A DNA stretch of 64,000 nucleotides, taken from Rhizodiscina lignyota (taxonomy: Eukaryota). The stretch covers positions 2,046,001 through 2,110,000 of the forward strand of contig ML978121.1 of the NCBI GenBank assembly GCA_010015805.1, given 5' to 3'. This document shows positions 13,842 through 46,770 of this stretch, in pieces. Both the position numbers and the translations under genes were made by a program. Each line of letters opens with the position of its first letter. Within the stretch, counting starts at the first letter, position 1. Below the pieces are notes generated by a model. The model was not told where the DNA came from, searched no databases, and saw only the letters and a program-made list of their open reading frames with translations.

Positions 13842-15425
13842 CTAACTTCCCGTCCCCCCACCCTCCTGCTCTTTTCCTCTGTCAGGATCCCGGGCATGCT
13901 GTCTTTCTTTCCATGCCCGCAATGCCTGCTCTCGCTGAGCAGCTCTCTCCTTTGCGGCCTTCTCTTTGTTTCTTTGAGCCACGTCTCGCCAGGGATCGAG
14001 GCTGAGGTCCGTCTCGTAGTCACTCAGCGTACTCCGAGGAAAGTCAAAGTCGCTCAGGAACATGCTGGTATGCGGCGTTGTTTCATGTCCAAGGCCGACA
14101 GAGACATCCGGAAGCCTTGCCTTGGCTTTACCTGAGGCCTCTGCTGGAGAAGCTCTCTCCTCTTCTTCTGCACCAACATCTGCCGTATCTCGAAGATATA
14201 CTCGCGGCTTTCGTGCTTGAATTTCCCTCTCTCTTTGGGCTGCTTTCGCCTGGGCTGCCTTCTCCTTGTTCCTCCGAGCCTCGTCTCGAAACGGATCGAG
14301 GCTCAGAAACGTCGACGGGTCTTCGCTCAGCATGCTCTCTGGGAAGTCGAAGCCGCTGAACGACAAGCTCGTGTGCGAAGTCGCCGTTTCTTCATCGCCG
14401 ATGGACACGTCCAGGAGTCGTGCTTTGCCCTTACTGGAACCCACGGTCTCGCCTGTTGGTGAGAATTCCTCTTCCTGGCGCCGCGGGGGCAGATCCTGCA
14501 TTTCATATTCGACGTGTTCGTCCTCCGGGATCCCTTTCAGCAAGGCATGTGCCAAGGTCTTGATGCGATCCTGGGCACTCATGTCAGAAGCCGCCCTGAT
14601 CCGTCGTTGAGGGGAAGCAGCAGGCGCAGGTGCAGCAGGGAGATTGTCCACATCTGTAGGTCTGCGATTGCGCGATTTGAACGGAACTTCATCTTCGACG
14701 GGTCTCATCTCTGTGCGTTCCATTTCGTGATGCGTCATATTCGGCAATGCTTCTGCAGATCGAGATCGGTACCTGGCTACTGCATACCTGGCTGCAACAG
14801 CGCTGGCAGATTCGTCAGGGCCCAATGAACTTGCTGGAACCGCGGCGGCAGAAACTTCACTCCGAAATCCTATTGAAGATCTTAAGCCTCGACGGTGCCA
14901 CTCCTCTAGCATTCGTCGCTTGGCCGGAGTCATATGCCCGATGATCGGATCGTGGTTATCCTGCTTGTGGTCGACGCCCCTCGTGATGGTCGAGAACGGC
15001 ACCTGTGGTTTGGTGCCAGAGAGGTCGATTGCGCTGCCGCCTCGTCTCCGTGGAAGTCCAGGTAGATTTAAGTCGAACTCGGGATCAAGCTCCGAAGACA
15101 CCCTCGGGGTCCCATGCCATATCTGATTCTGGCGTGCCGCGTACGCCTCGGCATCTCTTTTCCTCAGGCGGTCGAGCTCCTCAATTAGCAACCGCTCCCG
15201 CTCCTCTCTTACTTTCTCGACAATCTCTTGCGCGCGCCTTTCTTTCCGCTGCTTTAGGTACCGCCAGCAGAGGTAGATTAAGGCAGTGAAAAGAAAGGTC
15301 CCCACGGTAGCTCCAACACCGATGCCGGCTTTGTCTGCTTTAGACAGACCTTGACCCCCTTGGATGCCCTTAACGACTTGGTCGAAGGTTTCGCGCTGCC
15401 GGATGGATGGTGGAAGCGGCGCCAT
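13842..15425 (-). CDS. Single-pass membrane protein with a long disordered tail containing an internal duplication
   Basis: 527-aa ORF. TM segment AGIGVGATVGTFLFTALIYLCW is followed by a basic stop-transfer stretch. Two copies of KxKARLxDVS...FDFPxSxLS...LSLDPxRDxAxRNKEKAA. Confidence 0.8.
   Translation of the reverse strand: MAPLPPSIRQRETFDQVVKGIQGGQGLSKADKAGIGVGATVGTFLFTALIYLCWRYLKQRKERRAQEIVEKVREERERLLIEELDRLRKRDAEAYAARQNQIWHGTPRVSSELDPEFDLNLPGLPRRRGGSAIDLSGTKPQVPFSTITRGVDHKQDNHDPIIGHMTPAKRRMLEEWHRRGLRSSIGFRSEVSAAAVPASSLGPDESASAVAARYAVARYRSRSAEALPNMTHHEMERTEMRPVEDEVPFKSRNRRPTDVDNLPAAPAPAASPQRRIRAASDMSAQDRIKTLAHALLKGIPEDEHVEYEMQDLPPRRQEEEFSPTGETVGSSKGKARLLDVSIGDEETATSHTSLSFSGFDFPESMLSEDPSTFLSLDPFRDEARRNKEKAAQAKAAQREREIQARKPRVYLRDTADVGAEEEERASPAEASGKAKARLPDVSVGLGHETTPHTSMFLSDFDFPRSTLSDYETDLSLDPWRDVAQRNKEKAAKERAAQREQALRAWKERQHARDPDRGKEQEGGGTGS
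13961..14435. repeat. Imperfect direct repeat (about 170 nt, two copies, about 300-nt period) within the CDS
   Basis: 13961-14132 aligns with 14261-14435 at both DNA and protein level. Confidence 0.75.
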
Positions 15426-16842
15426 GGTCTTTAACTTGATATGTATGACGAAGTTTCAAAAAGCGCGGTAAGGTTGAGATGTGAGTGAGAGGGAGAAGTG
15501 ATGGATCGCAAGCCGCGGATGAAGTGTGAGGAGTGATATGAAGACCAGAAACGAGTGGATGCGGCAGGCCGATGGAGAAGGTCGGTAGTTGGGGGCGTGC
15601 TCCCTTCTTATACTTGTCAGGTGGTACAAACGGTATATAGGCGCTTATGAGTTCCGAGTAGATCGTAGATTCGATCAGTCACATGAGGCTCAAACCGACG
15701 TCGTGGCCCGATCCTTGCCGTGGCAAGGCGGGAATTATGCGAGATCTCAGTGTCGTAATAGGCCAAAGGTATTTGCTACCTCTTTTTGTGGCTGATAGAG
15801 AAGCCTTGGAAAGAAGTAATCGTTTGCGTGATGTGATGGAGTTGACGATATCGACTGCCGGCACACTGCCTTGTCGCCAATGGAGGGCTCTGAGTTAACG
15901 CTAACTGTGTATGACGGATTATCGCTCTTTCTGAATGGTTTGAGTTAATATTCAATCGTAAGATCACGGAATTTGAGGCTGTTGAGTGTTTGCCGGTCAG
16001 GTTTACGAAAGTGTCCTTTGGGGGTGTGCAATTGTGATCGGAGATGCATGAAAGGCTGAGGCAAATAGGAGAATGTTGATAATTCGCACGGCCACCCAGT
16101 GAGATAATGGTCCGCATGACGACGAGCTTCCGGTTTTCGGAGTGTGCGAAAGCTGCTCCAAGTCATGTGCGGACGTCATTTCTCTATCAAAAAGAGAGCA
16201 CGGAGCAAAACGATCTCCTGGATACCAATTTACTTTGACGCCTGCCTGAGGGAACGAAGTGGCATTCTGTATTGTGCCCCATTCAACATCATTGTCCACA
16301 GGATCGCCTGATGGATAGCTGTCATATATTTATAAAGTCAGTCCTGCGTTTGCTCCTTGCCACGACTTCGATGATGACGATGGTCACAAACAGCAAACGA
16401 CCACACGTCAGACGTGACTTCTGATCTCGCCCAAGTCATGTAAACTGTTGGTGTTGCCAGTGACGTGCACCACATAGCTGGATTTCGGGAAGTTTGTTGG
16501 CAGCATGGTTGAGTAGGCTGGGGAGACACGCGGACATTGCGACCTTGCTGTCTGAGCATTATCATACTCTCGAAGAACTCTGAATCGTAAGAATGTCGAG
16601 TCACACAGCATATGTGGACTGAGAAACGCAATTGCGCCCTCACCTTGTGTGGCAACAAGTATACAAGAGGGCTGGACCACATTGCCGCTGCGCATCCCAA
16701 GACGTTCTGTAAGAAGTGGAAATGAAAAGGAAAGTATCTCAAGACGGCGTGCCAATGAGAGGAAATAAAAGATACTTAGCAAGTAGAAATCTCTGTGCTA
16801 AATCGAAACTTTTGAAACTACACTAGTTATGTACGGGTATCA

Positions 16843-24087: not shown

Positions 24088-26039
24088 ATGACTTCCACTC
24101 ACGGTGAGGCTGGCCAAGAGGCCAACGCGCCGGATAACGCTCCGGAACACACTGGCATGGCCAAGTACGGTGAGCTTCCTGCCACCAAGGAAGAGGGTCT
24201 CAGGCTTGCCGAGGAGCGCGGCTGGGGCCGGCAGGTCCCCGACACGGTCGCCATGGATACTGGCGCCTTCAGTGGCCAGTGGTTCTCCAACCCTGCTCAG
24301 TATGAGTATCATGGAGATGAAGGCGACATTGGTCCCGAGGTCCCGCAGCTTGAGGAAGAGCTCTTCAACACTCTTCTCCGCCCCATCATCGGCGATTACA
24401 CTGACGTGTATGACCTTGAGGTGAACAGTGAGGGCCCGCACCCGGTTCGTCCTGTGTTGCAGTTTGCTCATGCTGGCTTCCATCCCTTGATGAACGAAAA
24501 CCTGATCAAGGCTGGATACTTCATGCCCCTTCCGGTTCAAGTTGCGACGCTCGGTGCTATCAAGGAGGGCAGGGATGTGCTCGTCACTTCATTCACTGGT
24601 ATGTATTGCGCCCAAATTAACCAGTCATGTGCTAACACCACTGCGCAGGCTCTGGCAAGACCGTTGCCTATCTTGCTCCTTCCATCTCGCGCTTCATGGG
24701 CAAGTGGAAGACTGCGTGCAAGCCTCGCCCCCGTCGCGACACTCCTCAGGGCGTCCGCTATCGTGCTGAGCCAGTCATCCTCATCATCGTGCCAACCCGT
24801 GAGTTGGCAGCCCAGATCTTCGACGAGGCTCGCCGCCTCTCTTACCGAAGCATGCTGCGCCCTTGCGTTGTATATGGAGGTGGTCCTCTCAAGACCCAGG
24901 CTGAAGAATTGGAGAAGGGATGTGATATCCTTATCGCCACTCCGGGTCGTCTCGCCGACTTCCTGGGCCGCCCTGGATCTCTCGGCATGAACCGTGTCAA
25001 GTGAGTGCTCGTGCAACCGACCCCGTCCTTACTCTTGCTAAATCCCGACAGGGTCACAATTATCGACGAGGCAGATGAGATCCTTAAGGGTACTTGGCTC
25101 GACCATGTCAAGAGCATCCTGACCGGATATGGTATGTTTCTCATGACCCTAACCAGAAAGAACAATCCATTGACGTTTTAATAGATTCCAATGATGACGA
25201 GGACCACCAGTTCATGATGTTCTCCGCTACTTTCCCTCCGGATATCCGCGAGGTCGCCGACGACTTCTTGGCCAACAACAAGATGATCATCTCGATCGGT
25301 CGCGTTGGTGGCACGCACTTGAACATTGACCAGAGGGTGTACTACGTGGACTCATACTTGCGCGACAATGCGCTTTACGACTTGCTGATGTCCTGCGAGC
25401 CTGGTCGTACGCTCGTCTTCTGCAACTCCATTTGGTTGGCGGAGCATGTGGACGACTTGCTCTTCAGCAAAGGCCTTCCAGTCACCCTTCTCCACTCTCA
25501 AATGACCCAGGTCGAGCGCGAAGACGCAGTGTACGTAACCGTGACGTCTCCTGTATCTGATGTCCTCATTCTTACTAATTTGTCGTCACAGGCGTGCTTT
25601 CAAGGTCGGCAGCGCCCCGATCATGGCGTGCACTTCCGTCGCCTGCCGCGGTCTTGACATCCGAGGCGTCACGCACGTCATCAACTACACGCTTCCTCAG
25701 CACGATAAAGGCGGCGTTGACGAGTATGTGCATCGCATCGGCCGTACTGCTCGCGTCGGCAACAAGGGCCTCGCAACGGCGTTCTTCACTGAGAAGGATC
25801 AGCCCCTTGCCAAGGACCTTCATCCACTTCTCAAGGAGAACGGGGTGGACGTTCCTGATTGGCTTGAGGAGTTCTATGCACAGGAAGTCAACGAGGATAC
25901 TCAGACTGGAGATGCCGAAAACGCTGATGCAGACGCTGATGCAGACACTGGCGCTGCCGACGTCAACTGGGGTAATGGTGAGATCTTGACCTGCAAAAGA
26001 AACAGAATGAAACTTGCTAACTCTCATCGTACAGAGTAA
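24088..26039 (+). CDS. DED1/Vasa-like DEAD-box RNA helicase (multi-exon)
   Basis: Q motif GYFMPLPVQ; I TG|SGKT across intron 24599-24648; Ia PTRELAAQI; Ib TPGRL; II DEAD; III SAT; V CRGLDI; VI HRIGRTAR. Further introns near 25001, 25132, 25530 and 25978, with a probable 5-nt terminal coding exon (AGTAA, 26035-26039). Confidence 0.9.
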
Positions 26040-26557
26040 TCCTCATACCGTCTTGCTACATTAGTCACCCTCGGGTACTGTGCCCATGGCATTAGCATGA
26101 CTCAACACTTTTCGCGAAGCATTCTGCGCTCCGCTCTCTACTGTTCTCGACGATGGGGTTATCACTGGTCTATGCGGACGTTTCGGACGTTTCAACCATT
26201 ACTGACTTTTGCCCTATCACGATCGTGTGCTTGTCGAATTCGTTCACGAGCTCACGCGCTTCAACGGGCATAGTCTGGTTGTGCACCTCTCCTCCATTTC
26301 CTTTTGCTTTTCTCACACATGGGATCCGAACAAGGGCTCCTGAAAAGTCTTCAAACTAAAACTGCAAACTCACCAAAAAAAAATTAGTTTCCCAATTTGC
26401 TGGATTTCAGGTAGTTGAATACAAAATGAACCCCATCGTCAAATTAATGTGCCCTATGAGTCTATAAGGCTTTGTGACCTTGTGTAATATTCCGCGATTT
26501 GTTTTGGGTATAAGAGGTCCTGCCAGTCCGGGAGACCATTAGCTGTCAACATTCAAG

Positions 26558-27052
26558 ATGAAGAAGTTGAATAGTATTCTCGAACACGACTGTCGTAGAC
26601 CTTATTCCGCTCCAGACTTGCTGGAGAAGTTATCGGAGGAGAATTTCGCCGGAGGTGATTTCGTTCTGGCGTTGAAATGGATTGACGATGACAATCGAGG
26701 TCCTCGAACGGGCGAAATTATGTCGAGATCCGTCTAAGCGGGAATATTTCACACACTACAAATGGGCTTTGCAGAATTTGCATTCGTCAATCGCGAGCTT
26801 GCGAGAGCCTCAGGTGATTTTGATGCACTGAGGCTAAAATCAATGGCACTTATCGCCGCGGCGAAGGCTGGATTGATGGCGAGAGATTTGAGAGACACTA
26901 TGTGTCAGAGGGCAGTCGTAAGGCAAGACGCTATTTGCAATCCAAAGTTTGTTGAAGTGGTTCCTGAAGATGGTGAGTTGGCGCACGAAGAGGTTCTCAG
27001 AAGGCTACATGAGACACGGGGTTGGGGTCTTCCATTTGTAAACGATACTTAA
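26558..27052 (+). pseudogene. Stop-interrupted paralog of the novel helical family (member P1)
   Basis: The frame from ATG 26558 (MKKLNSILEHDC...FVLALKWIDDDNR) has a single TAA at 26735-26737 and continues in frame into the 26762 ORF (FAFVNRELARASG...EVLRRLHETRGW). It is colinear with the 27459 ORF. Confidence 0.65.
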
Positions 27053-27458
27053 TAGTTGATGCCCCAACCGGTCCGTAGTACATACAGTAAGTCAAATTTC
27101 AGTTGTACAGTTATGGGTGATGTATGACTTCAGGGCATTGGGCGGCAGATCGGTAGTGATCAGGAGTAACGTTTGCTCATTGGAATCGGGAATCTTGGAG
27201 TCGGGTTACTTTGAAGGCCAAATGATGAATAGCAAATGGAGTGTTGACTTTGGGTTTTGGCTGATGGTTAGGCGGCATTGCCCTTCGTCACCGGGACTGT
27301 TTGTCTATCATGTAGTTGCCAAAGGGATATAACTCTGCAAAGTGCCAGTCCTTAACCTGTCGCTCATATTGAGAATAAGTGAAACCGCTGAGAATAAAAC
27401 TGTTTCATTTGCCCGAAGACATATCGCTAGTTGAACTAATCTCTGAGCAACGGCAAGT

Positions 27459-28067
27459 ATGGAGACTGATGGTTCCATGAAGGAGCTTTCCATGAAGAAA
27501 CTCCGTAATCTTCTTGAGAAGCTTTGCTCAGATTCGTTGGATCGGAACAAAAAAGAACAACTGATAAAGGCTATTATGCTAATCAGAGCGGATGCTTCGA
27601 CTCTCCTACAAGCTCTTAAATGGCTCGACGATGATATCCGGGTTCTCAATTTGTGGAACGCTTTTCTCGTAGAGAAGCAGCGCGCAACGGATGCGTTAGA
27701 AAGCGAACCATCCATTCAACGGGAAATTCCAATGTCGGAGTTCCACTGGGCTTTGATAGATCGAGAAATCAGCCGACTTTGGGGCAACCAGTCTGCTGTC
27801 GACCGGATGCTTCGATACAGACTGTACGAAGACTGGCCGGTAAATGGGGAGGATGATAAATTGAAGCTAACGATAAAGAAGGCTTTGATAGCAAAAGTAC
27901 GGGAACGACAACAAGTGGTACGTGATCTGGATGTGCTGAGTAGGGACCAGATCCTTGATGACCTGGAAGGCACTGTTCTTGATGGAGTTCACTTCAGAAG
28001 TCCGGGTAGTCGGGATCATGGTACAGGCTGGACATGCTCGCCTGATTTGAGCGAAGCAGAGACCTAG
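27459..28067 (+). CDS. Uncharacterised helical protein, novel family member P2
   Basis: 202-aa intronless ORF with motifs LQALKWLDDDIRV, HWALIDREISR and ALIAKVRERQQVVRD shared with neighbouring ORFs. Confidence 0.7.
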   Translation: METDGSMKELSMKKLRNLLEKLCSDSLDRNKKEQLIKAIMLIRADASTLLQALKWLDDDIRVLNLWNAFLVEKQRATDALESEPSIQREIPMSEFHWALIDREISRLWGNQSAVDRMLRYRLYEDWPVNGEDDKLKLTIKKALIAKVRERQQVVRDLDVLSRDQILDDLEGTVLDGVHFRSPGSRDHGTGWTCSPDLSEAET

Positions 28068-29758
28068 ATATATCGGATGCTTACGTGGGCTCTCTCACAT
28101 TTGTTGTCTAGTACGAATGGATGCGCTGGAAATGTGTGCTTTGGAGTATGATTCTCTGTCGGAACACGAATGTCTGGTTGAAATGCAGTTGATTAGGGCG
28201 ATCTTATTAAGCAGCGACAGTTGACTACATACTACGTGAACATCAAGACATTAACTAACCACTCTACTACGGCCCAGAGTCTTGATTTCTATTACAATCC
28301 TACAATTCTTATTGCCTGTTGCTGATCAATTTTATTGTTTAAGCTGTTTGCTCCTCCGAATGGTGTTCAATAGATTAAAAGCCATCCTACGTCGCGGTCG
28401 TTGAGACAAGCATCGGGTGCGGCAACGAGTGCAAGATTCTAATAATTTAGAATGGGAAGCACAGAAAAAGGCCCTGAGGCGAAAACCATCTACCAGAGAA
28501 AGTGTATTGAGTTGCGCCATCTACAGACTACAGCAGTCGGACATACTTGCTACAGGCCCAGTCAAAGTTCTTTTGGAGCCTTCCTGGAGAACTAAAATCT
28601 CATATATGAATACACGCTCGTATGCCCCGATCATGTAGTCCACTTGATGGTTATCGAACATAGACTGGCTTGCTGCGTATGCTGGGATCCTCAGAAATAG
28701 TGGTTTCTGGAGCCATTGCGCGAAATTAAGGTGTCTGATTCCGAAGTAGTGCTATATCTCCCGGTCAAGCAGCCCGTCCTTGATTCTCTTTGGTGATCTT
28801 CCGTACAGACTCATGCTCACAGAATCCACTTCTAGTCGGCATTGTCAAGGGTGCTCAGATTGTCCACCAGAAACAAATTTCGAACGGGCTGGAAGAATTT
28901 CGTGAGCGTAGACAGTAAGACAATCCATCTTACAAGCTACTTAAACAGCTTGGACCAATCAACCTGTCTATTTCGGCATAGATTAATGATTTAATTTCAA
29001 ACATGAGGACTGAGGATCAGATTTTGCATCCTTCTTGCTTGCGAGCATACGAACAGGCTTGGTTGTCGTGATCCGTCTGGAACAGTTGGTACTGGTTCTC
29101 TCAATGGATGTTGCTCAGCCGGTTGCTGTATCCACGCGAACTCACTGCGAGCATATTAGTTTCAAGCTCCGGCACCAACCTATGAACCTTGGGACGCCCA
29201 CGGTGACCTCTGCAACACATTGGGCGTTAAGTCCACCACACATTGTATGCTTTAGTGAATATAGTCGATGTAGCAATCTATTTCACCTTTTCATAGATGC
29301 TCCTCTAGCAAAGCCGGCCCTTTGCAAAGTGGGGATGATAAACTGCAAGCTATATACGTACAAACACGAAGCGGATGATGTTCCACTGAATCTGGGTTGT
29401 GATATAAGTTCTCCCTTTTCGCTTTTTGAGTCACATTCTGTATCAAATGCGTTAGCTCCGAATTCATATAAGCTTTTAAAAAGTGAAATAGATACACGTC
29501 GAATCCTGTAGCCACTTGATCATCGATAGCGTAGAAGACCCCAATTCATAATTTCATGGTAACGTAACACTGGGTGGGCATTGAGCGGTTAGAATCGGAG
29601 AGAAGCGCGGCTGCAAATTGCATTTGGAGCCAGATAGAATGGGCATATTGTGTTGTTTACGCACTGGTGCCTGAGAGGTAAAACACGTAATTTCGCTCCC
29701 CTTAGGCTCTGAAATTTATGGTGAGCTACCAAATTGAATTGAGAGCGAAGAACACCTT

Positions 29759-29764
29759 TATAAA
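29759..29764 (+). promoter_or_regulatory. Putative TATA box for P3
   Basis: TATAAA about 25 nt before the minisatellite and about 170 nt before the ATG at 29933. Confidence 0.5.
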
Positions 29765-29789
29765 TTTTTCTTGCAGATGCTCCATCGTT

Positions 29790-29929
29790 CCAAAATCATC
29801 CAGCTCCAAAACCCACAGCTCCAAAATCATCCAGCTTCAAAACCCACAGCTCCAAATTCCCCAGCTCCAAAATCATCCAGCTCCAAAACCCACAGCTCCA
29901 AAACCATCCAGCTCCAAACCCATCCAACT
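29790..29929 (+). repeat. Minisatellite of nine 15/16-nt units (CCAAAATCATCCAGCT / CCAAAACCCACAGCT)
   Basis: Units are directly visible, and the array ends 3 nt before the ATG at 29933. Confidence 0.9.
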
Positions 29930-29932
29930 ACG

Positions 29933-30505
29933 ATGGCGCAACAGCAGCAGATTCAAAGGTGGGCCGAAAGCAACGGAGCCAGATTCCTCAAAACTTTACT
30001 TGATATCGCAGACGATAATGAGTTCGAACAAGCCTTCGCACAAATGTACACCCTCCCCCTGAACAACAACCTCTTCCGCGAGGTCGACCTCTGGATTGCC
30101 ACACGGTGGATCACAACAGAAGTCGAGATCATAGTAGCTCAGAAAGAGTATCATCGCATGGTTCTCGACTGGACACATTACGAAAACAACGGCACGCTGC
30201 CTATTGGCGAGAATCGCGAGATGTTGATGGAAGAACTGGGAAGGACGAGGCAGGCACTTCTCAATGCCAGAGCACGCCTGAGCGAAGTCAGGCCGGACCG
30301 TCCCGAGGACGAACGTGCCATGATACAGGCAGCGGCGACAGACTCGGACGCGAGGGTGATGGAGGGATGGAGGATGCAGGAGCCGCTGCTCAAGGCGGCA
30401 ATGAAACGTCGAGATTTGCTGCGGGACAGCAAAGAGTCGCGCTGGATGGCGGCCGGGACGCTCGACTTCCTTCGGAGGAAGGGATGGCTCGCGCTGTCGG
30501 AATAA
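29933..30505 (+). CDS. Uncharacterised helical protein, novel family member P3
   Basis: 190 aa from MAQQQQIQRW, with motifs LWIATRWITTEVEIIVAQKEYHR, RQALLNARAR, LLKAAMKRRDLLRD and GTLDFLRRKGWL. Confidence 0.75.
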   Translation: MAQQQQIQRWAESNGARFLKTLLDIADDNEFEQAFAQMYTLPLNNNLFREVDLWIATRWITTEVEIIVAQKEYHRMVLDWTHYENNGTLPIGENREMLMEELGRTRQALLNARARLSEVRPDRPEDERAMIQAAATDSDARVMEGWRMQEPLLKAAMKRRDLLRDSKESRWMAAGTLDFLRRKGWLALSE

Positions 30506-31084
30506 CTCAAGGTGAGCGACTTTCCTGGTGCAAATGTTAGAAGACAATTACTAACTTGCCAAGGCACAAGGGAAAGTGTGCACGAGCTTCCTCTCGGCGA
30601 CGATTGGTGATTCAGTACTCTTCGAAAGAGTCGGGAGCTGTGGCCCTCAGTTTTGGGTTGGTATTGTCGGTGACTTTAAGATAAGCATCATTTTGTAGAG
30701 AGTGTCATTCTCTCATCCAGGTGGAATGAAGAAACTTCATGATATGACCTTCCTTTCTTCCGGAAATGTGAAACATAAATTGAGAATACGGGATAAGACG
30801 ATACTAGAAAGTGAAAAGTGCTAGAGTGGTACTAACGAGACTTCAGAGCTTCGACAGAGACATCAACACTATCAAGAGGAGTATATTCAAGGATTAAACG
30901 TTCGCGATGGACTGACAATTAGGAGGTGATGTTGCGAAAGAACAAAAGGCAGGATCGTCAGCCTCGGCCCAAGCCACCAACCCTCCGCAACGGCTCCGCA
31001 GTCTGACGTTGTATAACAAGTACCAAGTCTAAGGCCAATTGATCACGGTATTTTCACTTGTTCGTTTGTTAGAGATGGTCCGAA

Positions 31085-32978
31085 ATGGCTACACCAACAG
31101 GCGAGAAGATTATTGCTCAGGCTCTTCGTGACCTCGGAGTAACGGTGGTCTTTGGCCTCGTCGGCCTGCCCGTTGCAGGCATTGCAGAGGAGGTGATTAA
31201 TCTTGGGATACGTTTCGTCGCCTTCAGGAATGAACAAGCAGCCAGTTATGCAGCTACAGCTTATGGATACCTAAGAGGCAAACCAGGCGTGTGCTTGCTA
31301 GTTGGAGGGCCGGGGATGCTACACGGAATAGCTGGGGTAAGTCACCTTTCCCAATCCGGACAATTATCTAACAGCTTTCCAATAGATCGGAAATGCTTCT
31401 GAAAATGGGTTTCCTACACTGTTCCTTGGAGGAGCTTCTGAGCGCGATCTCGATACGAAAGGCGCCTTTCAGGAAATGAAGACGGTGCCGCTCCTGACTC
31501 CACACACGAAATCCGCCGTACGCCCGTCTTCAAACCAGCCAGATGTGATAGTAGACGCAATCTATAATGCATACCGGATATGTGCTTTCGGTCGGCCTGG
31601 GCCAACATTCGTAGATCTCCCAGCGGACTTGATCATGAACGCACAGCCGGAAGGTACAAAAGCGAGGCCGCGAGCAATGATACAGGCGCCGCCTCGTCCG
31701 GCTGCAGAACAGGACTTGATTGTGAAAGCATCAAATCTTCTAAAATCTGCCAAGGCACCTCTAGTGATCGTTGGCAAAGGGGCTGCATTGGCACGAGCAG
31801 AAGGACCCATCAACGACCTCATCGCTTCTGCGAACTTACCTTTCCTTCCAACACCAATGGGCAAGGGTGTGGTACCGGACTCATCACCACTGAACACGTC
31901 TTCTGCGCGATCCGCTGCTCTGAAGGAGGCTGACGTAGTGCTTCTTCTCGGCGGTCGTCTCAATTGGATTTTGCATTATGGTGCAGCTCCAAAGTTCAGG
32001 AGTGATGTCAAAATCATTCAGGTTGACATCTCTGCTGAAGCTCTCGGACATACCAACAGTGCCGGGCATCCATCATTGAGCATTCTAGCAGATATTGCCG
32101 TGGCCGTTCAGCAACTCAATACCGCTCTTCGAGGTTGGAAGTATCTTCCGAAACCATCATTGAAATCCAACGACGCCAGTTCGTATGCTGGAAAGTTATC
32201 AACAGCGGCGGCAAGGAATGAGCAGAAGAATCGCGTACTAGAACTTTCTCCTACGGAATCTGGAGCTCATATGACATATCAACGTGTCTACTACATCATT
32301 CGCTCGGTGTTTAATTCCTTTTCCACTTCCTCAAAAGGAACGAATGATTCTGTCGTGTTGGTTTCCGAAGGCGCTGCGACCATGGACATTTCTCGCTCCT
32401 CTTTTCCGCTGTCATTACCTCGACACCGTCTCGATGCTGGCACATATGCGACAATGGGTGTTGGTATGGGCTATGCTATCGCTGCCTGGGCTGCTTACAA
32501 CTACCCCCATCCTGAGGATTCCGGTAACGCACAGAGAAAGAAGATTGTCGCAGTGGAGGGCGACTCGGCTTTTGGTTTTAGTGGCATGGAAATCGAGACC
32601 ATGGCTAGATGCGGTATGGATGTGTTGATAATTGTGATGAACAACTCCGGTATCTATCATGGCGATGCTAAGACTGCAAATGAATGGGACGAGATGCGGA
32701 AGCAGACTCTTGCCGGCGGTCAGGGTATCAAGAAGAACAAGAGACTCAGTGCCACTTCATTGACGTACAATACACGCTATGAAAAGATGGCAGAGATGGT
32801 AGACGGACGCGGATGGTTTGTGCAGACTGAAGCTGAGCTTGAAAACGCCGTGAGGGAAGCATACCAGGAGAGGCAGAAGGTCTGTCTCGTGAACGTGGTA
32901 GTGGAGCCTGGTCTTGACAATCCCGTGAATTTCGCTTGGGAGTCAAAACAGCCGAAGCAGGAAGAGGCAAAGCTTTAA
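31085..32978 (+). CDS. 2-hydroxyacyl-CoA lyase (ThDP-dependent, peroxisomal)
   Basis: [37 protein letters not shown], ThDP motif [11 protein letters not shown]...NN, and C-terminal PTS1 -AKL. Intron at about 31337-31386. Confidence 0.92.
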
Positions 32979-33565
32979 AATTGGAGATTTAACAGTCATT
33001 GATACATATAACTACGATAGATAAGAATAGGAAAAAAGAGTCGTTCCGTGACACTCTTTCGCTCAGGAGAAGCCTACACGTGGCCTAGCCGCTACTCTAT
33101 GTTCACCGCGTGTCACGTGTGTACAGCTCGCCTAAACGTCACTAAAGTTCGGCTATACGTCCAAAAATGGTAAAGCGCGATAAAAAAAAAGTATACTTGG
33201 CACCAGGAGGTGGCTTGCCGGCGTATAGATCAGCCCCCCGACGTATGATCACCTTCTGCTTCTGTAAACCTCGACGAATTCCAAGCCTTAGGCGAGGTTT
33301 AGCCACATAGGCGAGCAAAATCCACCTCAGCATTGGAGGCCTCCAGCAGCCATATGGGACAAGGAAGCCTCTATCACCAACTATGTGCATGTTTGAGATA
33401 TCAACAAACCATTAATGGTGCTATGAGAGTATGGAAGGCTAGTTAGCTCCACGCTCATCGTCGTCTTCCGGGCTCCCAATGTCAACGTTTGCGTCCACCA
33501 ATGCCTGACGAGAAAGGCAGGCTTTTAGTGCATATGCACTGCTAATCTCACATCTGGGCATTCTT

Positions 33566-35485
33566 ATGGCGAGTGGGTATGAGTACAAACCTCTGAATCC
33601 CGACCGTCGAGAGTTCAGAGCTTTGCAGCTGCCGCCGCAGGACGCCTTGGACTCAGAACCTCTGAAATGCACCGTTCAGCACCTTTCGCTCGACGACGAA
33701 GAATGCCCCGAATACATGGCAATGTCTTACGCGTGGGGCGATCCCACTGCTACCCACACAATTCGTCTTCATGATGACATTGTTTCTGTGCCGGCGAATG
33801 CAGAGCTGGCCATTCGAGGACTCGTCAACATCCAGACGCATCTATCTTCCAATCATACTGAACGCCAGTCCGGGAAAATAGAATCCAGCAAGCCGTCTTG
33901 GACTTCCAGAGAGCTTAGGAAAGGCTTCATTGTTTGGATAGATGCAATAAGTATCAATCAACTGTCCGTGGACGAGCGCAATAGCCAGGTGTTCCTCATG
34001 CAGCATATTTATGCTCGTGCATCTCACGTTGTAATATGGTTAGGCGAAGACAGTGACGGAACTACCGGAGCTGCAATCAGGTCCATGAATCATATATTCG
34101 ATTACGTGTTCGATCAGATCAAGGACAAAGACGACACACAATCCTATGAGAAAATGAGCTCATACCTCTGGCGCTACAGCGAGGACGGTCACCGCAAGAT
34201 AAGGTACTCTGATCTCGAATTCCTGGACGATAGTGCCATCGACTGGCCCGCTATTCGATCCTTTTTCTCGTCCCCGTGGTTTCTGCGGCTTTGGGTGATC
34301 CAAGAAGTAGTTCTTGCGAGGCATAACGTTCTCTGTATACGTGGGAAGTGGCACATTATGTGGTTTGCTGTTGGATTTACTGCTCGATTGATGGAATCAG
34401 GGAAGTGGTTCTACAAAGCTGGTGGTCCCCTACAAGGAGTCTCGAATGCCGCGGACATCTTTGATCTGCAGTTCAGCCACAAGAGTGTGCCTGGCGTTTT
34501 AACTAACAGTGTTACGTTCAAAGCTACTGAACCAAAAGACAAGGTCTATGGCCTCCTCGGTCTACTACAAAACGTGAAGGACTTTCAGAATATATCTCAC
34601 CATCTGATCCCAGACTATTCGAAATCACTTGCAGAAGTTTATATCGGCGCTACGCGTGCCGCTCTCGAATTGGCACAGAACCTGGGAATTCTGGATCTTG
34701 TCGACGTATTACACCCTGAGAAGCGAAACGATGATCAAGGCACGGATAGGATTCCGTCATGGGTTCCGCGATTCGACTGGACCTTTGATGCTCAGCTTAG
34801 CTCGCCTTCGACGATCCAGGCTGATTACGTATCGGGGGCAGATAACGGCGAACCTCTGCAATACTCAAATGACAACAACAGCTTTTCTGTCTTGCGTGTC
34901 CGCGGCTTGATCGTTGATGAAGTGTCCGAGTATACCAAACCAATCCAACCCTCGCTATGGGGGGATCTCTACAGTCTGGCAGAGCGCATTGCGGACAGCT
35001 TGATGCTCGCTAAACAGTCTTCACCGGGCCTTACGGACACTGAGCGAATAAAGGCATGGAGTATTGTGCTGGCTGCAGGATTGAATAACGAACGATCGAA
35101 CGCAATGAATGACAATGGTTTCCAAGCTGACAGTTGGGCTTTCATCGAGCATATGCGGACACACATGGTGGAAGGCCACGTACCAGAGAATACTACAGGC
35201 GACTGGAAGAGATTTTCGTCCACAATCATTGGCAATTCTTGGAACAGGATTTTCTTCATTACGAAAGGAGGCAGGATGGCGCTTGGCCCGCCGGGACTTG
35301 TAAAGGGAGATAAAATTGTCATCCTGTTCGGATCGGGCATACCGCATCTTTTGCGTCAGCAGCAGGGCTGTTGGACATTTATAGGGAGTGCATACGTGCA
35401 AGGTATCATGCAGGGAGAACATGTACGAAAGTTGTCAGACGAAGGGCAGCTTCGAAACAAGACATCGACTTTTGATATTCAGTAG
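33566..35485 (+). CDS. Heterokaryon incompatibility (HET) domain protein, HET-6-like architecture
   Basis: YKPL...R..L.P, YMAMSYAWGDP, WIDAISINQ...ERNSQVFLMQHIYARASHVVIWLG, WFLRLWVIQEVVLA, ATEPKDKVYGLLGL, PSWVPRF, and C-terminal GRMALGP...GDKIVILFG...FIGSAYVQGIMQGE. Confidence 0.93.
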   Translation: MASGYEYKPLNPDRREFRALQLPPQDALDSEPLKCTVQHLSLDDEECPEYMAMSYAWGDPTATHTIRLHDDIVSVPANAELAIRGLVNIQTHLSSNHTERQSGKIESSKPSWTSRELRKGFIVWIDAISINQLSVDERNSQVFLMQHIYARASHVVIWLGEDSDGTTGAAIRSMNHIFDYVFDQIKDKDDTQSYEKMSSYLWRYSEDGHRKIRYSDLEFLDDSAIDWPAIRSFFSSPWFLRLWVIQEVVLARHNVLCIRGKWHIMWFAVGFTARLMESGKWFYKAGGPLQGVSNAADIFDLQFSHKSVPGVLTNSVTFKATEPKDKVYGLLGLLQNVKDFQNISHHLIPDYSKSLAEVYIGATRAALELAQNLGILDLVDVLHPEKRNDDQGTDRIPSWVPRFDWTFDAQLSSPSTIQADYVSGADNGEPLQYSNDNNSFSVLRVRGLIVDEVSEYTKPIQPSLWGDLYSLAERIADSLMLAKQSSPGLTDTERIKAWSIVLAAGLNNERSNAMNDNGFQADSWAFIEHMRTHMVEGHVPENTTGDWKRFSSTIIGNSWNRIFFITKGGRMALGPPGLVKGDKIVILFGSGIPHLLRQQQGCWTFIGSAYVQGIMQGEHVRKLSDEGQLRNKTSTFDIQ

Positions 35486-35849
35486 CACGCCGCGAACGTC
35501 GAGCTATTCACGCTGCAAACACATCCCGGGATTTTTCAGCTTAGATTTTTTCCAGAGTCAAGCTGCGTCACATCGAATTCGTCGATGCGAAGGAGGTAAG
35601 AGGGAAGCGCTACTGAGATCGGCCTTCAGAAGAGCTCTTCGAGGAAATGATTTTAACAGAGTTTTTCTAAAAGAAAAATGGACAAAGATATATCACCCAT
35701 ACGCCCAACGAGGTTAGTCGCGCATCTGCACCGCTCCTTCCTAATTTGGAAGTTGAGTTACGTCCGATTGTTCATTGCTTTTGACTACTTTACGTCCCTG
35801 CTTCTCCAATGTTCTTCTTGACCATCTGCAACCACCTTGATCAGAAGTC

Positions 35850-36660
35850 ATGCGTGTTCGACCTATGACCTATTTCGACGTCAGAGTCGTCGCGGACATT
35901 GGGAAGGAAACCTTTGCCAACGACGAGCTCTTCGCTTGGCTCTATCCGTACAAGGATCAATATCCCAATGATAGCACCCGCTGGCAGCTGCTGCGTTTAC
36001 GTACGCGGCTCGTAGAACGAGGGTCACATGGATTTGTTTCCGAGACTGAGCCTGGCGATGACGGATGGGATGCGACTATTGGACCCGTCGTTGTGGGATA
36101 TGTATTTTTCATTGTGAAGGGTAGTGGTAAGGAGGCGCAGAAATGGCGGGCGGATTCTCTAATGAATAGTAAGTCGTGTTCGAGTGAATGCGACATGATC
36201 ATTCCGCAAGAGTCTGTGCTTATAATTGCCTGCAGAAATAGAGAGATACCTGCTAGGCTGGGAGGTGTATTATGAGCAAACGTTGTTACAGCGCGCTATG
36301 GATCCGAAGGCACTTGAAATGTATGCAAACCTTAAACAATTCAGTATCTACAGAACGCTTGACGAATACTGGTACCTCGGCCTTCTAGGTGTGGATCCGA
36401 AGTACCAACGTCGAGGCATCGGGGCAAAACTTGTGAAGCACGGTTTCAGCATAGCTCGAGAGGGAGAACTTCCTATGGCGCTGGAGGCAACTGTATCGGG
36501 ACAAGCTCTATATTCAAAGCTCGGATTCAAGACGATACAGAAATTGAAGATCGGACCATTATCGGAAGAAATCGCTACAATGCTGTGGGAGCCGGAGTCG
36601 CTGAAGGGAAGGTGGCTTGAGGAGGAGAAAGAAGGAATTGCAAAACTGAAAGTACCGTAA
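35850..36660 (+). CDS. GNAT-family N-acetyltransferase (2 exons)
   Basis: Intron 36169-36235. Acetyl-CoA motif YLGLLGVDPKYQRRGIGAKLV and LEATVSGQALYSKLGF. Confidence 0.9.
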
Positions 36661-36835
36661 GCTAGTTGTTACTCCGGGGATATAGAAAGATCCTTGAGAT
36701 CCGTTGCTATGTTCAAGGAGTCGATCTGCTACACTCTTCTTCGTAGCAGACTCACGACTGAAACGGAAGTGGTTATAGGTGAGATTACTTTCCACGCAAG
36801 AATATTCCGCTATGAAATACGACATTACATGTTTG

Positions 36836-37864
36836 CTACGCTAGCGATTTGTCTAACCCGGTCTCAGTGCTCTCACTACTAATGCCTAGCTCTACGTCAG
36901 GCTCACCAAACCACTTTCCATCCTGCAACCACAGTATCACCTCCCCGCACCAAACGTCCAAATCTTCCCAAGAAAGCCACTCCGCACGCTTCTCAATTGC
37001 CTCCAACAACACCCGAATAAGGTCGCGCATGTACACCAATTTCATCGACTCATCATCTGACCGCAGCCATGGTCCGACCATTGATCGGGCAAAGTCCAGA
37101 ACTTCTTCTGTGCATGCCAGCTTATCAACCCGAGCAAACGACCGATTGAGAAGCGCCTGACGCCTTCCCCATTTCGCATCGCTTCGTTTTATACGATTAG
37201 CTACCGACGGGTCGCGCTTCGATGCTTCCTTCACTTGGTGGTACGCTAATTGGGCAGCGAAGACTGCGTTGTCATCGGTCGCCCATTTCCATGCCAAGAT
37301 GAGGTACTCTGGCCCATTATCATCCGCGATATCGTCCAAGCGATGTATAGTTTCCATATGCAGTCTCCTGTCGCCCTTGCTTGCGCCGTTGGCGTAGCGT
37401 TGCAGCCAGGCAGTGAGCTCGAGCCATTCTGTACTCGCATGCCAGCTGAATTTGGTTTGTTCTTCTCGGCGCGTGGTATTGTTCGCTTGAGTTGATGTCG
37501 GTTTGATAGCCGGAGGCGATCCTACAGGCGGTAAAGGAGTCATTTGGAGCCAGGGAGGTACTGTGGTAGCATCGTTGAAAGGTAGTGAAGTTGTAGTACT
37601 CGTGTTCTGAACCTTCTTTACCTCCAGTGAGGCAGCTTTGGATTTCCAGTGCGGCTCACGACTGGCCACTCTCGCTGCAATACTGGGCGGCAGGGAATGT
37701 GAGGCTGAGTGTGCTAGAGAGACAAATTCTTGCGGAGCATTATCAACAAATGCAGCAGCCGCAGTGTCGATTTTAAGGTTTAACTCTTTTCGATCGTTTG
37801 ACTTTTCACTCGGAGAGCTTTGTGCCCGTCGAAGAGCTGGAAATGAAGTGTAAATACTTGCCAT
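36836..37864 (-). CDS. Uncharacterised protein: disordered N-terminal extension plus novel family domain (member P4)
   Basis: 342-aa ORF whose C-terminal ~200 aa carry LILAWKWATDDNAVFAAQLAYHQ, RQALLNRSFAR, LLEAIEKRAEWL and EVILWLQDGKWF. Confidence 0.8.
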   Translation of the reverse strand: MASIYTSFPALRRAQSSPSEKSNDRKELNLKIDTAAAAFVDNAPQEFVSLAHSASHSLPPSIAARVASREPHWKSKAASLEVKKVQNTSTTTSLPFNDATTVPPWLQMTPLPPVGSPPAIKPTSTQANNTTRREEQTKFSWHASTEWLELTAWLQRYANGASKGDRRLHMETIHRLDDIADDNGPEYLILAWKWATDDNAVFAAQLAYHQVKEASKRDPSVANRIKRSDAKWGRRQALLNRSFARVDKLACTEEVLDFARSMVGPWLRSDDESMKLVYMRDLIRVLLEAIEKRAEWLSWEDLDVWCGEVILWLQDGKWFGEPDVELGISSESTETGLDKSLA

Positions 37865-38336
37865 GGCAGCAGTACAACAAAGATTACGAATGGAAATCTC
37901 TCATTTGATTGCACAAACGCTAGAGTTTTGAGTCGTGGCAAATATCATTTATTTAAAGAGGTAGCGGCCGCCGGATATATGGCATGGCGCTTGCGGCCCA
38001 GGTTTCTGTTGAGCGTCTGTCACTGGACTTCGGGCTACGCCAATGGTCAATGCCATAGATGCCCGGGCCGAAAGTACGATTTGTGTCTCTTTGAAGTGAT
38101 GCCCCTTTCACAAACTTTGTGAGTATACTATATGGTTACTGTTAGCACGGAGAAGGTGATAAACCTTTTACTCTACACGAAAGTGGAATGCACATATTCA
38201 ATAAAAGCTGAAGACGCGAGTCGAGTGAGTCTTACCAGGAAGCAGAATCTGCCACAAAATTGCCTCCTGCTGCTGAGATATCATTAACATAGCCCCAGAA
38301 AGGCATGAACAGTCGCGTCTTGTAAGATGGGAATTC

Positions 38337-38873
38337 ATGTCAAGCATGATCCGTTCGCATGTTGAACGGCTGGCGCGACAAACAACACTACGCTACCACG
38401 ATGAGATAAGAAGAGATGTCATCAAAATCCGCACAGAAAGTTTGATAGAAACGTTTCGAGAAGAATTCGCGTCCGGCAAATATCCAATCGCGATGTGGAC
38501 CGCGGCAGTGAAAATCATCGAGGATGATGTGCAGGTACTCCGAGCGTCCCGCAAATATATGAGAGTCAAGCGCTATATGGAAAAGACGTTTCCAGTATTC
38601 CAGAGTCCGGAATCACTGGCAAAGCTCAATTGTGCGGAATACAAGGTTCAATGGGCACTACACATTCGCGAAATCCGAGAACCGATGATGGTGTGTGATG
38701 ACTATGTGGAGAGCTTGGGCGTATCGGTCCTTCAGAGCTTGGGAAATACGCCGCTTCACGTTGCATCGGTACTTGGCCGTCTCATCGTCAAACGAGACCT
38801 TATGCTGAAGGATCCCTCGGAAGATCGGCCGTCCGATGACATACGGGCGAAGCTCACGGCAAGTCCTTGCTGA
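38337..38873 (+). CDS. Uncharacterised helical protein, novel family member P5
   Basis: 178-aa ORF divergent from P4, with motifs WTAAVKIIEDDVQVLRASRKY, QWALHIREIRE and VLGRLIVKRDLMLKD. Confidence 0.65.
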   Translation: MSSMIRSHVERLARQTTLRYHDEIRRDVIKIRTESLIETFREEFASGKYPIAMWTAAVKIIEDDVQVLRASRKYMRVKRYMEKTFPVFQSPESLAKLNCAEYKVQWALHIREIREPMMVCDDYVESLGVSVLQSLGNTPLHVASVLGRLIVKRDLMLKDPSEDRPSDDIRAKLTASPC

Positions 38874-43639: not shown

Positions 43640-45712
43640 CTACCGTTGCTCTCTGCGACTCCCTCCAATATCCTGCATCTCAACGCCATTCCCATTCGTC
43701 CCATTCGCCCTATTCGCGGTGGCCAAGCTCCTCCCACCCTGAAACTCCCTCCGCAACGGCGCGGTCCTGTGCCCTTTCCTGTCCCCAAATCGCTGATCCC
43801 CCTCGATGTACTGTTGCTTGAAGTGCAGATACGTCGGCGGCCGCGGCCTCGCCAGCACGGCGACCCAATTCTTAATCCACGCGCCCCGGGTAAACGGCCT
43901 GTGCCGATCCTTCTTCATAAACTTGTGGCTATTCAGGTACTCCCTCGTCGTCTCGCCCCGCGCCATGAGGAACAGATGGTACCCCCACAGACTCAGCGGA
44001 TACGGCGTGACCAGCACCGCGTAAATGACCATCGCGAACGGGACCCTCCACCGACCGATCGCATCCCCAAAGCCCTTGTGCTCCCGCTCTTTCCAGATCA
44101 GCAGGTGCGCTAAGCTCGCGGCGAACAGGTACAAGCCCAGCAGCGCACCGGAAGTGACGAACGCGAAGAAGTAGCGGTAGTTGCGCCGGCCGACGCAGTT
44201 GTTCAGCCACACGCAGTGGTGGTCCTGCGTCTCGACGCAGTTGTCGCACACGCGGCAGTGGTGCGCGCGCGGGGGCCGCCAGATGTTGCAGGACTTGCAG
44301 TACTTGGTTGGGACTTCCATTGCTGCGGAGGCGGAGATCGCGGAGACTACCATGGTCCATTCGGTGGTTGGGGGGCCGAGGGTTAGGGGGTCTTCGTTCG
44401 GTGCCGAGGGGGGGAAAGGGTGAAGGTTTCGGGGGAGGATCTGTGGATGTCAGTTGTTTGTCAGAGGGATGGGAAGGGAATAGCTTACGCCAGGGTCTGT
44501 GGCTGAGGCGTGCAGGAAGGAGGAGATGCATATTAGGAAAATGTACGCGAATATTATGGGTATCGCTGGGGAAACATTAAGCCATAACCATGGGGCACTG
44601 TGATCTCAAGTCAGTATCACCTGCTTAAGATGTATGGTTATGAATACGTACGAAAAACCAAAGAAAAGGCCCGCTGGGAGGAGCGCCAGTATACCCGTCG
44701 CTATGTTTATTGGACGATCCCGCGTATTCTGCAGTCTACCACCCCAGAAAAACACAGTATTGCCGGTGAAATACTCGTAATTCTTACCCAGCTCTCGTTT
44801 TATTTGCGTCTTCTGCGGTTCCGGTAATGCCATATGCGGCGAAGAGGCAGTGGAGGACAACTTTTCGTGCCCATGCTGATGTTGAAGTGAAGAATGGCCG
44901 GTTTTGCTCCGGCGGCTTGGTATTGCGAAACTGGATCGGAAGGAGCGTGGGGATTTGGTCGGTGTGGGTAGATGTGATGCTGAACCGTTCCTGTTGGCTT
45001 TCTCAATGTTGAGATGAGTGAGACCGGACGGTTTACGCAGCGGCGCAATGCTCTCACCCTGACTTCGAACTGTGTCGGCGTTGTCGGGCGACGGGTTTGT
45101 AGTTGCTCTGTCTTGCCCGTCGTGCTCGGTGACATCCGTGTCTCTCGAGACTGGCGGGTCCGAGTCGTGCTTTGCGGCCTGCTTTTGCGACTGGTCTTGA
45201 AATGGAGTCCCTCTACCGAGTATTGATGTCCTCTGACCTCTCTGCGCCTGTAGTCTCTGCGAGCTCATCGGCTTGAAAAAGGCATGCGACGTTATGGAGG
45301 GGACATGCGTCCTGCTCCCAGCCGTTGGGGGTCTGCTGGCCGCCGTGCTACCCACACTCCGCGCTCCATGGCTGATTCCGCTCCTGCCTTGGCCGGGTTG
45401 CGATTGTGACCAAGTGCCTCTCGAGACACCGGTCTGCGCGGTCGACGGCCTCGAAGGCGGAAGACCAGGCTCGCCAACCGGACCCGTCACACCTGGCACC
45501 GCGCCGCTTGCTCTTCTGCTGTTGTCCCCCCCCGTGACGTTGCCGGCGCGACCGGCGAGAGTCGAGGCGTCGTCTTCCGAGCCAAATTCTGTCATTGATA
45601 CTGTCTGAGCATGATATTTGGCCCTATTAGATTTGAGTTCGTGGGCGGCGGCAGCGTCTTCTTCTGTGGCGGGCGGGTTGGGAGGGAGTGATGTGCGAGA
45701 GTCGTCCGTCAT
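43640..45712 (-). CDS. ERF2: DHHC palmitoyltransferase Erf2 (3 exons)
   Basis: KNYEYFTGNTVFFWGGRLQN, DHHC-CRD KYCKSCNIWRPPRAHHCRVCDNCVETQDHHCVWLNNCVGRRNYRYFF, and the TTRE motif. Two short introns near 44440-44490 and 44598-44651. Confidence 0.92.
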
Positions 45713-46770
45713 GGCTGCGAGAAGTAGTCAGGGAGGTGCAGGGTCAGGCTTGCTCTGCGCATGAAGTCGGGCATTTCGGGACGGGCTATAGTGTGCGACA
45801 TGGTCGATATATGCGGACAGCCATGCTTGATTTGCAATCGCGACTGGTTTCTGAGGAGTGTAGGGGAGAGAGAGCGATGAGACGCAAAGTTTGTTTTGCG
45901 CAAGCGTCTCGTCTCGCTCGTGAGGCTTCACTCAGGGCTGGTTAGGACGTCCGATCTGCCCTCCGCGCCGCGCTGATTGGCCAGTGCCTGGCGGTATGCA
46001 CCAGCGCTGCAGTAGCGAGATTCGGCGCGTCGTGCCTCGCACTAGATCGCCAGAAGTTGGGTAGCAATGTGGCGATATATCTCTCTGCCCCTCCGCCGGC
46101 AGAATGCTCGCTGCAGGAGGGAGGAGAGATGCTTCTCCATCACGTCAACGGGCGTCGTGCTGGTGCATCGTCGAGTCGCGACGAGCCTTGCACGCGACGC
46201 TCAAGGACAGGCCTCTGAAACTGCACCAGAATGACGTCCTCGACAAAAAATTCCATATCCAAAAGGCAGCTCTACAGCCAATGTGGGAGTGTATAGAAAA
46301 TTTCCATAAATAAAGCGATTGCATCGTATAGAGTATTGCTTAGCCAGCGTCGCCCAACTGCGTTGCGTGGATCGACCTTGCATTTACTAGCGGCGCGGAG
46401 GAGCCCCTTACGACTTCTGGACACGACAGCCATATCCATATCCAGCCCAGCTGAACGCGCAATTCACCTTTAACTGCTGCACTCTGCCAACTCGACGTCT
46501 GCGCCGAACTGCTTCTCCTCCCACTGCTGTACTGCCCTTGCGCCGCCTTGTGCGCTCCTTCGTACTCTCCTTCATCCTCTTACCGTCGCTACTCCCTTGC
46601 ATCCGTTTGTTCGTTTGAAACTTTTCCAGAGCTTCACCCGAGCTTGGATTCTTCCTCAATCCTCCCGATCCACCTGTACCACCCACGACACATGCCGCTA
46701 GCGTAGTCTCCAGCGAAGTTCTACCCACCTTCTCCTTCCGCCGGTTTCCAACGCCCTTCAGCGTTTCAAC

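Follow-up and report, generated by a model that had tools for sequence, protein, structure and literature searches.

Do five short open reading frames (ORFs) that look like orphans when taken one by one belong together and, if so, what has driven them so far apart? The question arises from a 64,000-nt stretch of the fungus Rhizodiscina lignyota (assembly GCA_010015805.1, contig ML978121.1, positions 2,046,001 to 2,110,000 of the forward strand), hereafter the window, in whose coordinates all positions are given. A sequence-only reading of the window had described five ORFs, P1 to P5, as highly diverged paralogs of an unrecognised helical domain, and had proposed a locus shaped by genetic conflict. 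Our analysis indicates that P1 to P5 probably constitute an undescribed, lineage-restricted family of four intact intronless genes and one frameshifted pseudogene, which would have arisen through old local duplications and would evolve by birth and death. The ORFs lie where they had been placed, on both strands and interleaved with other genes:

26558..27052, forward strand: P1, ORF; decayed member (pseudogene)
27459..28067, forward strand: P2, ORF; intact member of 202 residues
29933..30505, forward strand: P3, intact member of 190 residues from the deposited start (MAQQQ...); longer ORF at 29777-30505
36836..37864, reverse strand: P4, ORF; intact member of 342 residues
38346..38873, forward strand: P5, intact member of 175 residues from the deposited start; first ATG of the ORF at 38337

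The motif strings on which the proposed family had been based were all found exactly (18 of 18) and run colinearly in the order A-B-C-(D), with similar spacing (39-54 residues from A to B and 37-50 from B to C). Similarity above chance is visible at the profile level only, pairwise comparison being marginal. In a database of the five sequences, the best BLASTP pairs were P1-P2 (E 7.9e-4), P3-P4 (0.003), P2-P4 (0.005) and P2-P5 (0.078). The background for phmmer and profile searches consisted of the 956 six-frame stop-to-stop ORFs of the window with 40 residues or more. Against this background, single-sequence phmmer gave reciprocal first matches only among P1, P2 and P4 (E 0.016-0.29), and nothing better than E 1.6 for either P3 or P5. 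A profile built from P1, P2 and P4 ranked P3 first (E 0.021) and P5 second (E 0.071) among the ORFs outside its training set, and the next one followed at E 3.1. When each member was left out of the profile in turn, it came back as the best non-training match in five of five cases, that is, at rank 1 among the 956 ORFs, with E-values of 0.12, 5.3e-4, 0.17, 3.9e-3 and 2.5e-3 for P1 to P5 in order; in the case of P4, an unrelated ORF came close behind (E 0.065).

Searching 1,835,955,588 representative proteins with the family profile returned 5 matches at E<=0.001, namely the proteins of the four intact window genes and a single one from elsewhere. This outside relative is a 159-residue protein on an 11-kb contig (E 4.6e-5, 39.7 bits), closest in sequence to P1 and P2 (about 30% identical). 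Once it was added, the leave-one-out scores were 21.3 bits for P1, 19.0 for P2, 15.3 for P3, 32.5 for P4 and 22.2 for P5. Overall, the six members each reached 15.3-43.8 bits when scored with a profile built from the rest, and the best of 1000 composition-preserving shuffles reached 6.5-9.9 bits (8.5 bits for P3 and 7.9 bits for P5). None of the 1000 shuffles equalled the real score in any of the 6 tests, and reversed sequences scored about 0. Profile-profile comparison, which the sequence-only reading had put forward as a check, also linked the subgroups: hhalign aligned P1, P2 and the outside relative with P3 and P4 at P 5.6e-5 (probability 66%). The first of these subgroups matched P5 at P 4.8e-4 (probability 32%) and the second did so at P 0.021 (probability 2%). 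Taken together, these comparisons argue that P1 to P5 are true paralogs of one family, in which P5 is the weakest, least secure and most diverged member. What had been a weak motif likeness among orphans has acquired sound homology statistics with the window alone as background.

Over aligned columns, any two members are 18-31% identical, and only two residues are invariant in the six sequences, the alanine of motif A and the arginine of motif C. The family motifs read A-x-K/R-W-x-x-D/E-D (A), L-x-x-R-E-x-x-R (B) and L-x6-R (C); in motif A, P3 carries TTE for DDD and P5 carries I for W. Motif D had been called weak or absent in both P2 and P5. P5 does lack it, whereas in P2 it can be recognised by eye near the C-terminus. 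The closest paralogs are P3 and P4 (28-30% identity), both of which have DIADDN upstream of motif A, and a tree of six rows groups only this pair, with moderate support (89/86) and no starred branch. The tips of the tree are very long (0.6-3.4 changes per site), P5 having the longest branch. No further copy was found among the 1930 window ORFs of 20 residues or more, where the best other match had an E-value of 0.98.

P2 to P5 are intact, uninterrupted ORFs and agree letter for letter with deposited proteins (4.06-Mb contig), so that the description of all five coding sequences as intronless stands for these four; P1 is broken by an in-frame TAA. The training set for codon log-odds comprised ten long window ORFs, several of them with Pfam matches, which themselves score 0.10-0.29 bits per codon. 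By this measure, every piece of the P ORFs (6 of 6) scored best in its own frame of the six, at 0.06-0.18 bits per codon. No two copies share a DNA repeat of 16 nt or longer. That protein similarity has been kept where DNA similarity is gone points to long selection on the P proteins. In P4, residues 1-150 form a basic extension (isoelectric point, pI, 9.4) rich in serine, threonine, proline and alanine (46%); the family domain occupies residues ∼151-342, with the profile match at 151-341.

Directly 5′ of the P3 start codon lies a repeat that bears on where this gene begins:

29758..29937, strand unspecified: tandem repeat

The repeat has a 15/16- and 31-nt register of the CTCCAAAA(T/C)CATCCAGCTCCAAAACCCACAG type and lacks stop codons in every forward frame, and this accounts for the longer, 242-residue ORF that starts at 29777. 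Codon usage shows no frame preference over 29777-29932. An independent contig assembly breaks at this repeat, which is probably a variable 5′ untranslated region or a promoter microsatellite.

The same assembly bears on P1, the copy in which the proposed gene decay is borne out by an in-frame TAA together with frameshifts supported by the profile. The ATG frame of P1 carries motifs A, B, C and D, yet it is interrupted by the TAA at 26735-26737. Unaltered, P1 scores 21.3 bits when compared with a profile built from the five remaining members. Reading its middle part (from ∼26693-26699 to ∼26775-26780) in the +1 frame removes the stop and yields 38.4 bits; reading it in the other shifted frame yields 23.5 bits. 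Rescue by an intron was considered and rejected: a 75-nt in-frame GT-AG segment (26700-26774) would drop the stop, but the score of 21.3 bits represents no gain, and its splice signals look poor by eye. Compared pairwise on its own, the shifted middle piece is not significant (180-1814 of 2000 shuffles equalled its score), so the frameshift reading rests on the profile result. The independent assembly, with a depth of ∼154 and drawn from the one public run in which the locus is present, is identical to the window over 26000-29818, which makes an assembly slip at P1 unlikely, with the proviso that its reads may be the same as those behind the window. The P1 protein was absent from the profile matches that recovered all four other members among the representative proteins; thus, P1 seems not to be annotated. 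P1 is a pseudogene, and its sequence fits two compensating frameshifts.

How old are the copies? Third-codon-position identity between paralogs is 0.24-0.34, and synonymous divergence (dS) is at least 1.77 or undefined, that is, saturated, which leaves the ratio of nonsynonymous to synonymous divergence (dN/dS) uninformative. On these figures the duplications are old. Repeat-induced point mutation (RIP) was rejected as a cause of the divergence. The thresholds for RIP are ∼0.89 for TpA/ApT and ∼1.03 for (CpA+TpG)/(ApC+GpT); the P genes have values of 0.39-0.72 and 1.26-1.31, and the whole window has 0.63 and 1.30.

The family is narrowly distributed. The local expansion proposed for it agrees with what we found in the window ORFs and in protein databases, in which the copies are confined to a 12-kb stretch; copy number outside the window was judged from the protein databases alone. 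Word-index searches of 5.8 billion clusters returned only the window's own proteins. In metagenome scans, 0 of 87 pattern matches obtained with the single outside protein were confirmed, nor were any of the 321 obtained with a three-row alignment and the pattern ALKW[VLI][DE]DD. The host belongs to an isolated Dothideomycete lineage. Rhizodiscina lignyota is the sole species listed under its genus and family in the taxonomy, and a new family and a new order have been erected for it, among wood and leaf saprobes (PMC7082219). Even the neighbouring 2-hydroxyacyl-CoA lyase, apart from a 97% identical match on the same contig that its source attributes to Rhizodiscina lignyota, has a best non-self relative only 61% identical in the 5.8 billion clusters, which suggests that the orphan status of the P genes owes much to sampling. 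For a family whose paralogs are only 18-31% identical to one another, any orthologues in relatives this remote would escape a search. Saturated synonymous sites, the lack of RIP and the isolation of the host together allow age and sparse sampling to explain the divergence without conflict. We conclude that three factors chiefly account for divergence and orphan status, namely how old the duplicates are, how weakly the proteins are constrained outside the motifs and how isolated the host is phylogenetically, and that an arms race is not needed. Thus, from the original interpretation, the unrecognised helical domain, the local expansion and the decay are retained, but the step from diverged and clustered to conflict is not, as the copies are simply old, with dS saturated.

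The domain itself had been reported as unrecognised, and known-family searches agree: none of the five proteins matched a Pfam family at E<=0.1, and a profile search against Protein Data Bank (PDB) sequences gave 0 matches at E<=10. When Pfam was searched up to E 10 with seven rows, only Med14, an RelB-like antitoxin, DUF3164 and Ank appeared, each in one of the seven rows and at E 0.17 or worse. NCBIfam and PHROGs gave only single-row matches, at E 0.039 or worse. Foldseek with the model of the outside relative found 0 matches in PDB at E<=0.001, its results all lying within what the tool treats as the uninformative range. In the ESM Atlas, P4 had no usable feature match, its own model having a predicted local distance difference test (pLDDT) value of 0.43, and P3 reached a best score of 0.87, where the bar of the tool is 0.9, with template modelling (TM) scores of at most 0.47.

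That the domain is helical is consistent with AlphaFold2 models, which are all-helical at low confidence and predict a domain of ∼160-190 residues. From a shallow family alignment, seven helices were modelled both for P2 (mean pLDDT 56.7, predicted TM score, pTM, 0.37) and for the outside relative (mean pLDDT 61.7, pTM 0.56). In these models the conserved A-x-K-W-x-x-D-D-x-x-V falls in a long third helix, W-x-L-x-x-R-E-x-x-R in the fourth and the invariant arginine in the sixth. The proteins are hydrophilic, including their N-termini (maximum 19-residue hydropathy 0.67-1.30), with a pI of 5.2-6.0 except for P5 (9.0) and 0-3 cysteines each. No signal peptide, membrane segment or recognisable catalytic signature is apparent in them. 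The helical prediction and the hydrophilicity suggest soluble intracellular helical proteins lacking catalytic hallmarks. Each P gene would encode a domain that is soluble and intracellular and whose ∼160-190 residues probably fold into about seven bundled helices. Its conserved charged positions (K-W-x-x-D-D, R-E-x-x-R and R) would most likely form one binding surface, in which case the P proteins would bind a partner rather than act as enzymes.

A HET-domain cell-death gene lies inside the cluster, in the interval between P3 and P4, which contains three genes:

31085-32978, forward strand: 2-hydroxyacyl-CoA lyase gene (TPP_enzyme_M/C; named from database matches)
33566..35485, forward strand: HET-domain gene of 639 residues (PF06985, E 7.4e-23), given here as context only
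35850-36660, forward strand: GNAT acetyltransferase gene (Acetyltransf_7/1)

P1 and P2 are a tandem pair on the same strand, 406 bp apart; P3 and P4 are a convergent pair that brackets the lyase, HET and GNAT genes; and P4 and P5 stand head to head with a 472-bp spacer. A PRP21 gene follows 3′ of P5 on the minus strand. Distances from the HET gene are 3.1 kb to P3 and 1.4 kb to P4, with other genes intervening on both sides. In the HET protein, ∼390 residues C-terminal to the HET domain have no Pfam match; in other HET proteins, the C-terminal region carries recognition specificity. A Pfam scan of the window revealed no NACHT or NB-ARC domain in neighbouring genes.

Two intervals within the cluster are worth recording in their own right. 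The gap of ∼1.6 kb between P2 and P3 (28068-29700) has a lower G+C content (0.445) and contains no ORF with coding-like codon usage, a 135-residue ORF at 29104-29511 scoring -0.04 bits per codon. Either an extended intergenic or promoter region or a gene that has decayed completely could account for it. Just 3′ of the P4 stop, at 36780-36813, a stretch of 31-34 nt also occurs on another, 98-kb contig of the same run, after which the two sequences diverge; it is a short dispersed repeat where contigs break.

Could the resemblance among the five proteins nevertheless be a matter of chance or composition among unrelated orphan ORFs or non-genes? The marginal pairwise similarity and the hhalign probability of just 2% between P3 with P4 and P5 would suit this explanation, but it is hard to reconcile with 0 of 1000 shuffles reaching the real score in each test and with reversed sequences at about 0. 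It also conflicts with the first rank of every left-out member, the match of an independent outside protein to the profile, the colinear and similarly spaced motifs and the coding-like codon usage in the right frame. We regard it as already largely refuted and very improbable. A different objection is that the P domain is a known helical family diverged beyond recognition, such as HeLo, HeLo-like, Goodbye, SesA or a DinB/YfiT-like four-helix bundle. The size of ∼160-190 residues, the all-helical prediction and the fungal host would fit, and many unannotated effector domains have been described in fungal NOD-like receptors (NLRs; PMC9815663). None of these families was matched in Pfam, even up to E 10, the N-termini are hydrophilic, and the profile search of representative proteins revealed no fused or longer form, all five matches being 159-342 residues long and free of other domains. 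This explanation is unlikely in our judgement.

The remaining alternative concerns the HET gene. The P genes might be its partners, as triggers, guardees or antidotes, in a novel type of allorecognition or toxin-antidote locus, with conflict driving both their divergence and the loss of P1. The position of the HET gene between P3 and P4 invites this thought, as do the narrow distribution of the P family, its divergence and its one dead copy. Such linkage is moreover an established architecture: in het-B (Bh/Bp) of Podospora and het-c/pin-c of Neurospora, a HET gene is tightly linked to a gene for a small soluble partner (PMC10890737). The argument is nonetheless one from adjacency, and genes of housekeeping type, the 2-hydroxyacyl-CoA lyase and GNAT genes, share the same interval. 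HET genes are numerous in filamentous ascomycetes, which makes chance proximity to P genes likely. The duplicates are saturated at synonymous sites and hence give no sign of recent turnover, and no upstream word of 8 nt or more is common to the four P promoter regions compared, which might have pointed to co-regulation. We consider a partnership of this kind decidedly unlikely. The HET domain is a TIR-like cell-death domain, and a more specific form of the idea, in which the helical P proteins were a new class of partner for it and the flanking paralogs its guarded targets or inhibitors in a multi-paralog allorecognition or toxin-antidote locus, is a long shot. A functional link between the P proteins and the HET gene, if true, would add a new class of partner to HET-domain cell death and reach beyond an ordinary orphan family.

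Several points weigh against our preferred interpretation of P1 to P5 as an old, lineage-restricted family. Support for P5 is modest, as its hhalign probabilities of 32% and 2% indicate, and so is that for P3, whose leave-one-out E-value was 0.17 until the outside relative joined the profile. The structural models are of low confidence, so that neither a bundle nor one surface is established, and partner binding is something that we infer. With synonymous sites saturated and one genome covered, protein change faster than neutral may have taken place. Finally, a HET cell-death gene does sit inside the cluster, between P3 and P4, and for HET genes linkage to a partner gene is on record (PMC10890737).

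The rest of the window puts the locus in perspective. Other ORFs include a fragment of a DEAD-box helicase, a two-pore K+ channel, a DHHC palmitoyltransferase, a protein O-mannosyltransferase and a PRP21/SF3a-type splicing factor. Scanning the window for Rfam families and tRNAs gave no match. Seven further long ORFs (258-537 residues) have no Pfam family at E<=0.001:

109-1083, reverse strand: long ORF
10129-11544, forward strand: long ORF
13845-15455, reverse strand: long ORF
44609-45727, reverse strand: long ORF
51350-52633, forward strand: long ORF
55962-56735, reverse strand: long ORF
60959-61753, reverse strand: long ORF

Orphan or poorly conserved genes are thus common in the window, and the P locus is not special in this respect. 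What the analysis adds is a well-supported undescribed protein family made up of four genes, one pseudogene and one outside relative. As it stands, the locus is functionally blank, an old gene cluster of an ordinary kind that is restricted to one little-sampled lineage of fungi.

Among known systems, HeLo, HeLo-like, Goodbye and SesA are N-terminal helical-bundle domains of fungal NLRs with roles in cell death or signalling, which also occur in stand-alone form; they are ∼150-200 residues long and fast-diverging. The P domain is likewise fungal, of similar size, predicted to be all-helical and diverged; it differs in having no hidden Markov model match to them and a hydrophilic N-terminus. None of the five profile matches is fused to a nucleotide-binding oligomerization domain (NOD; NACHT or NB-ARC) or to an amyloid motif, amyloid motifs not having been specifically searched for. 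As regards meiotic-drive, spore-killer or toxin-antidote gene pairs, the P proteins showed no sequence relation to any named family in Pfam, NCBIfam or PHROGs. The systems het-B (Bh/Bp) and het-c/pin-c resemble the locus in that a HET-domain gene lies near small soluble proteins of another family. In these pseudo-allelic incompatibility loci the partner is a single gene for a PII-like protein, whereas here there are five paralogs of a predicted-helical family, studied in one genome.

The family also resembles the locally expanded orphan gene families of filamentous fungi, a class frequent in fungal genomes. Like them, the P family has no recognisable domain, is found in one lineage, keeps its copies clustered (within 12 kb), consists of short intronless genes and would show birth and death, with one pseudogene. 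It departs from them in that its copies are unusually old for a cluster that is still compact (saturated, at 18-31% identity) and are interleaved with conserved genes. The P locus is a familiar kind of genomic feature, and the family itself is new.

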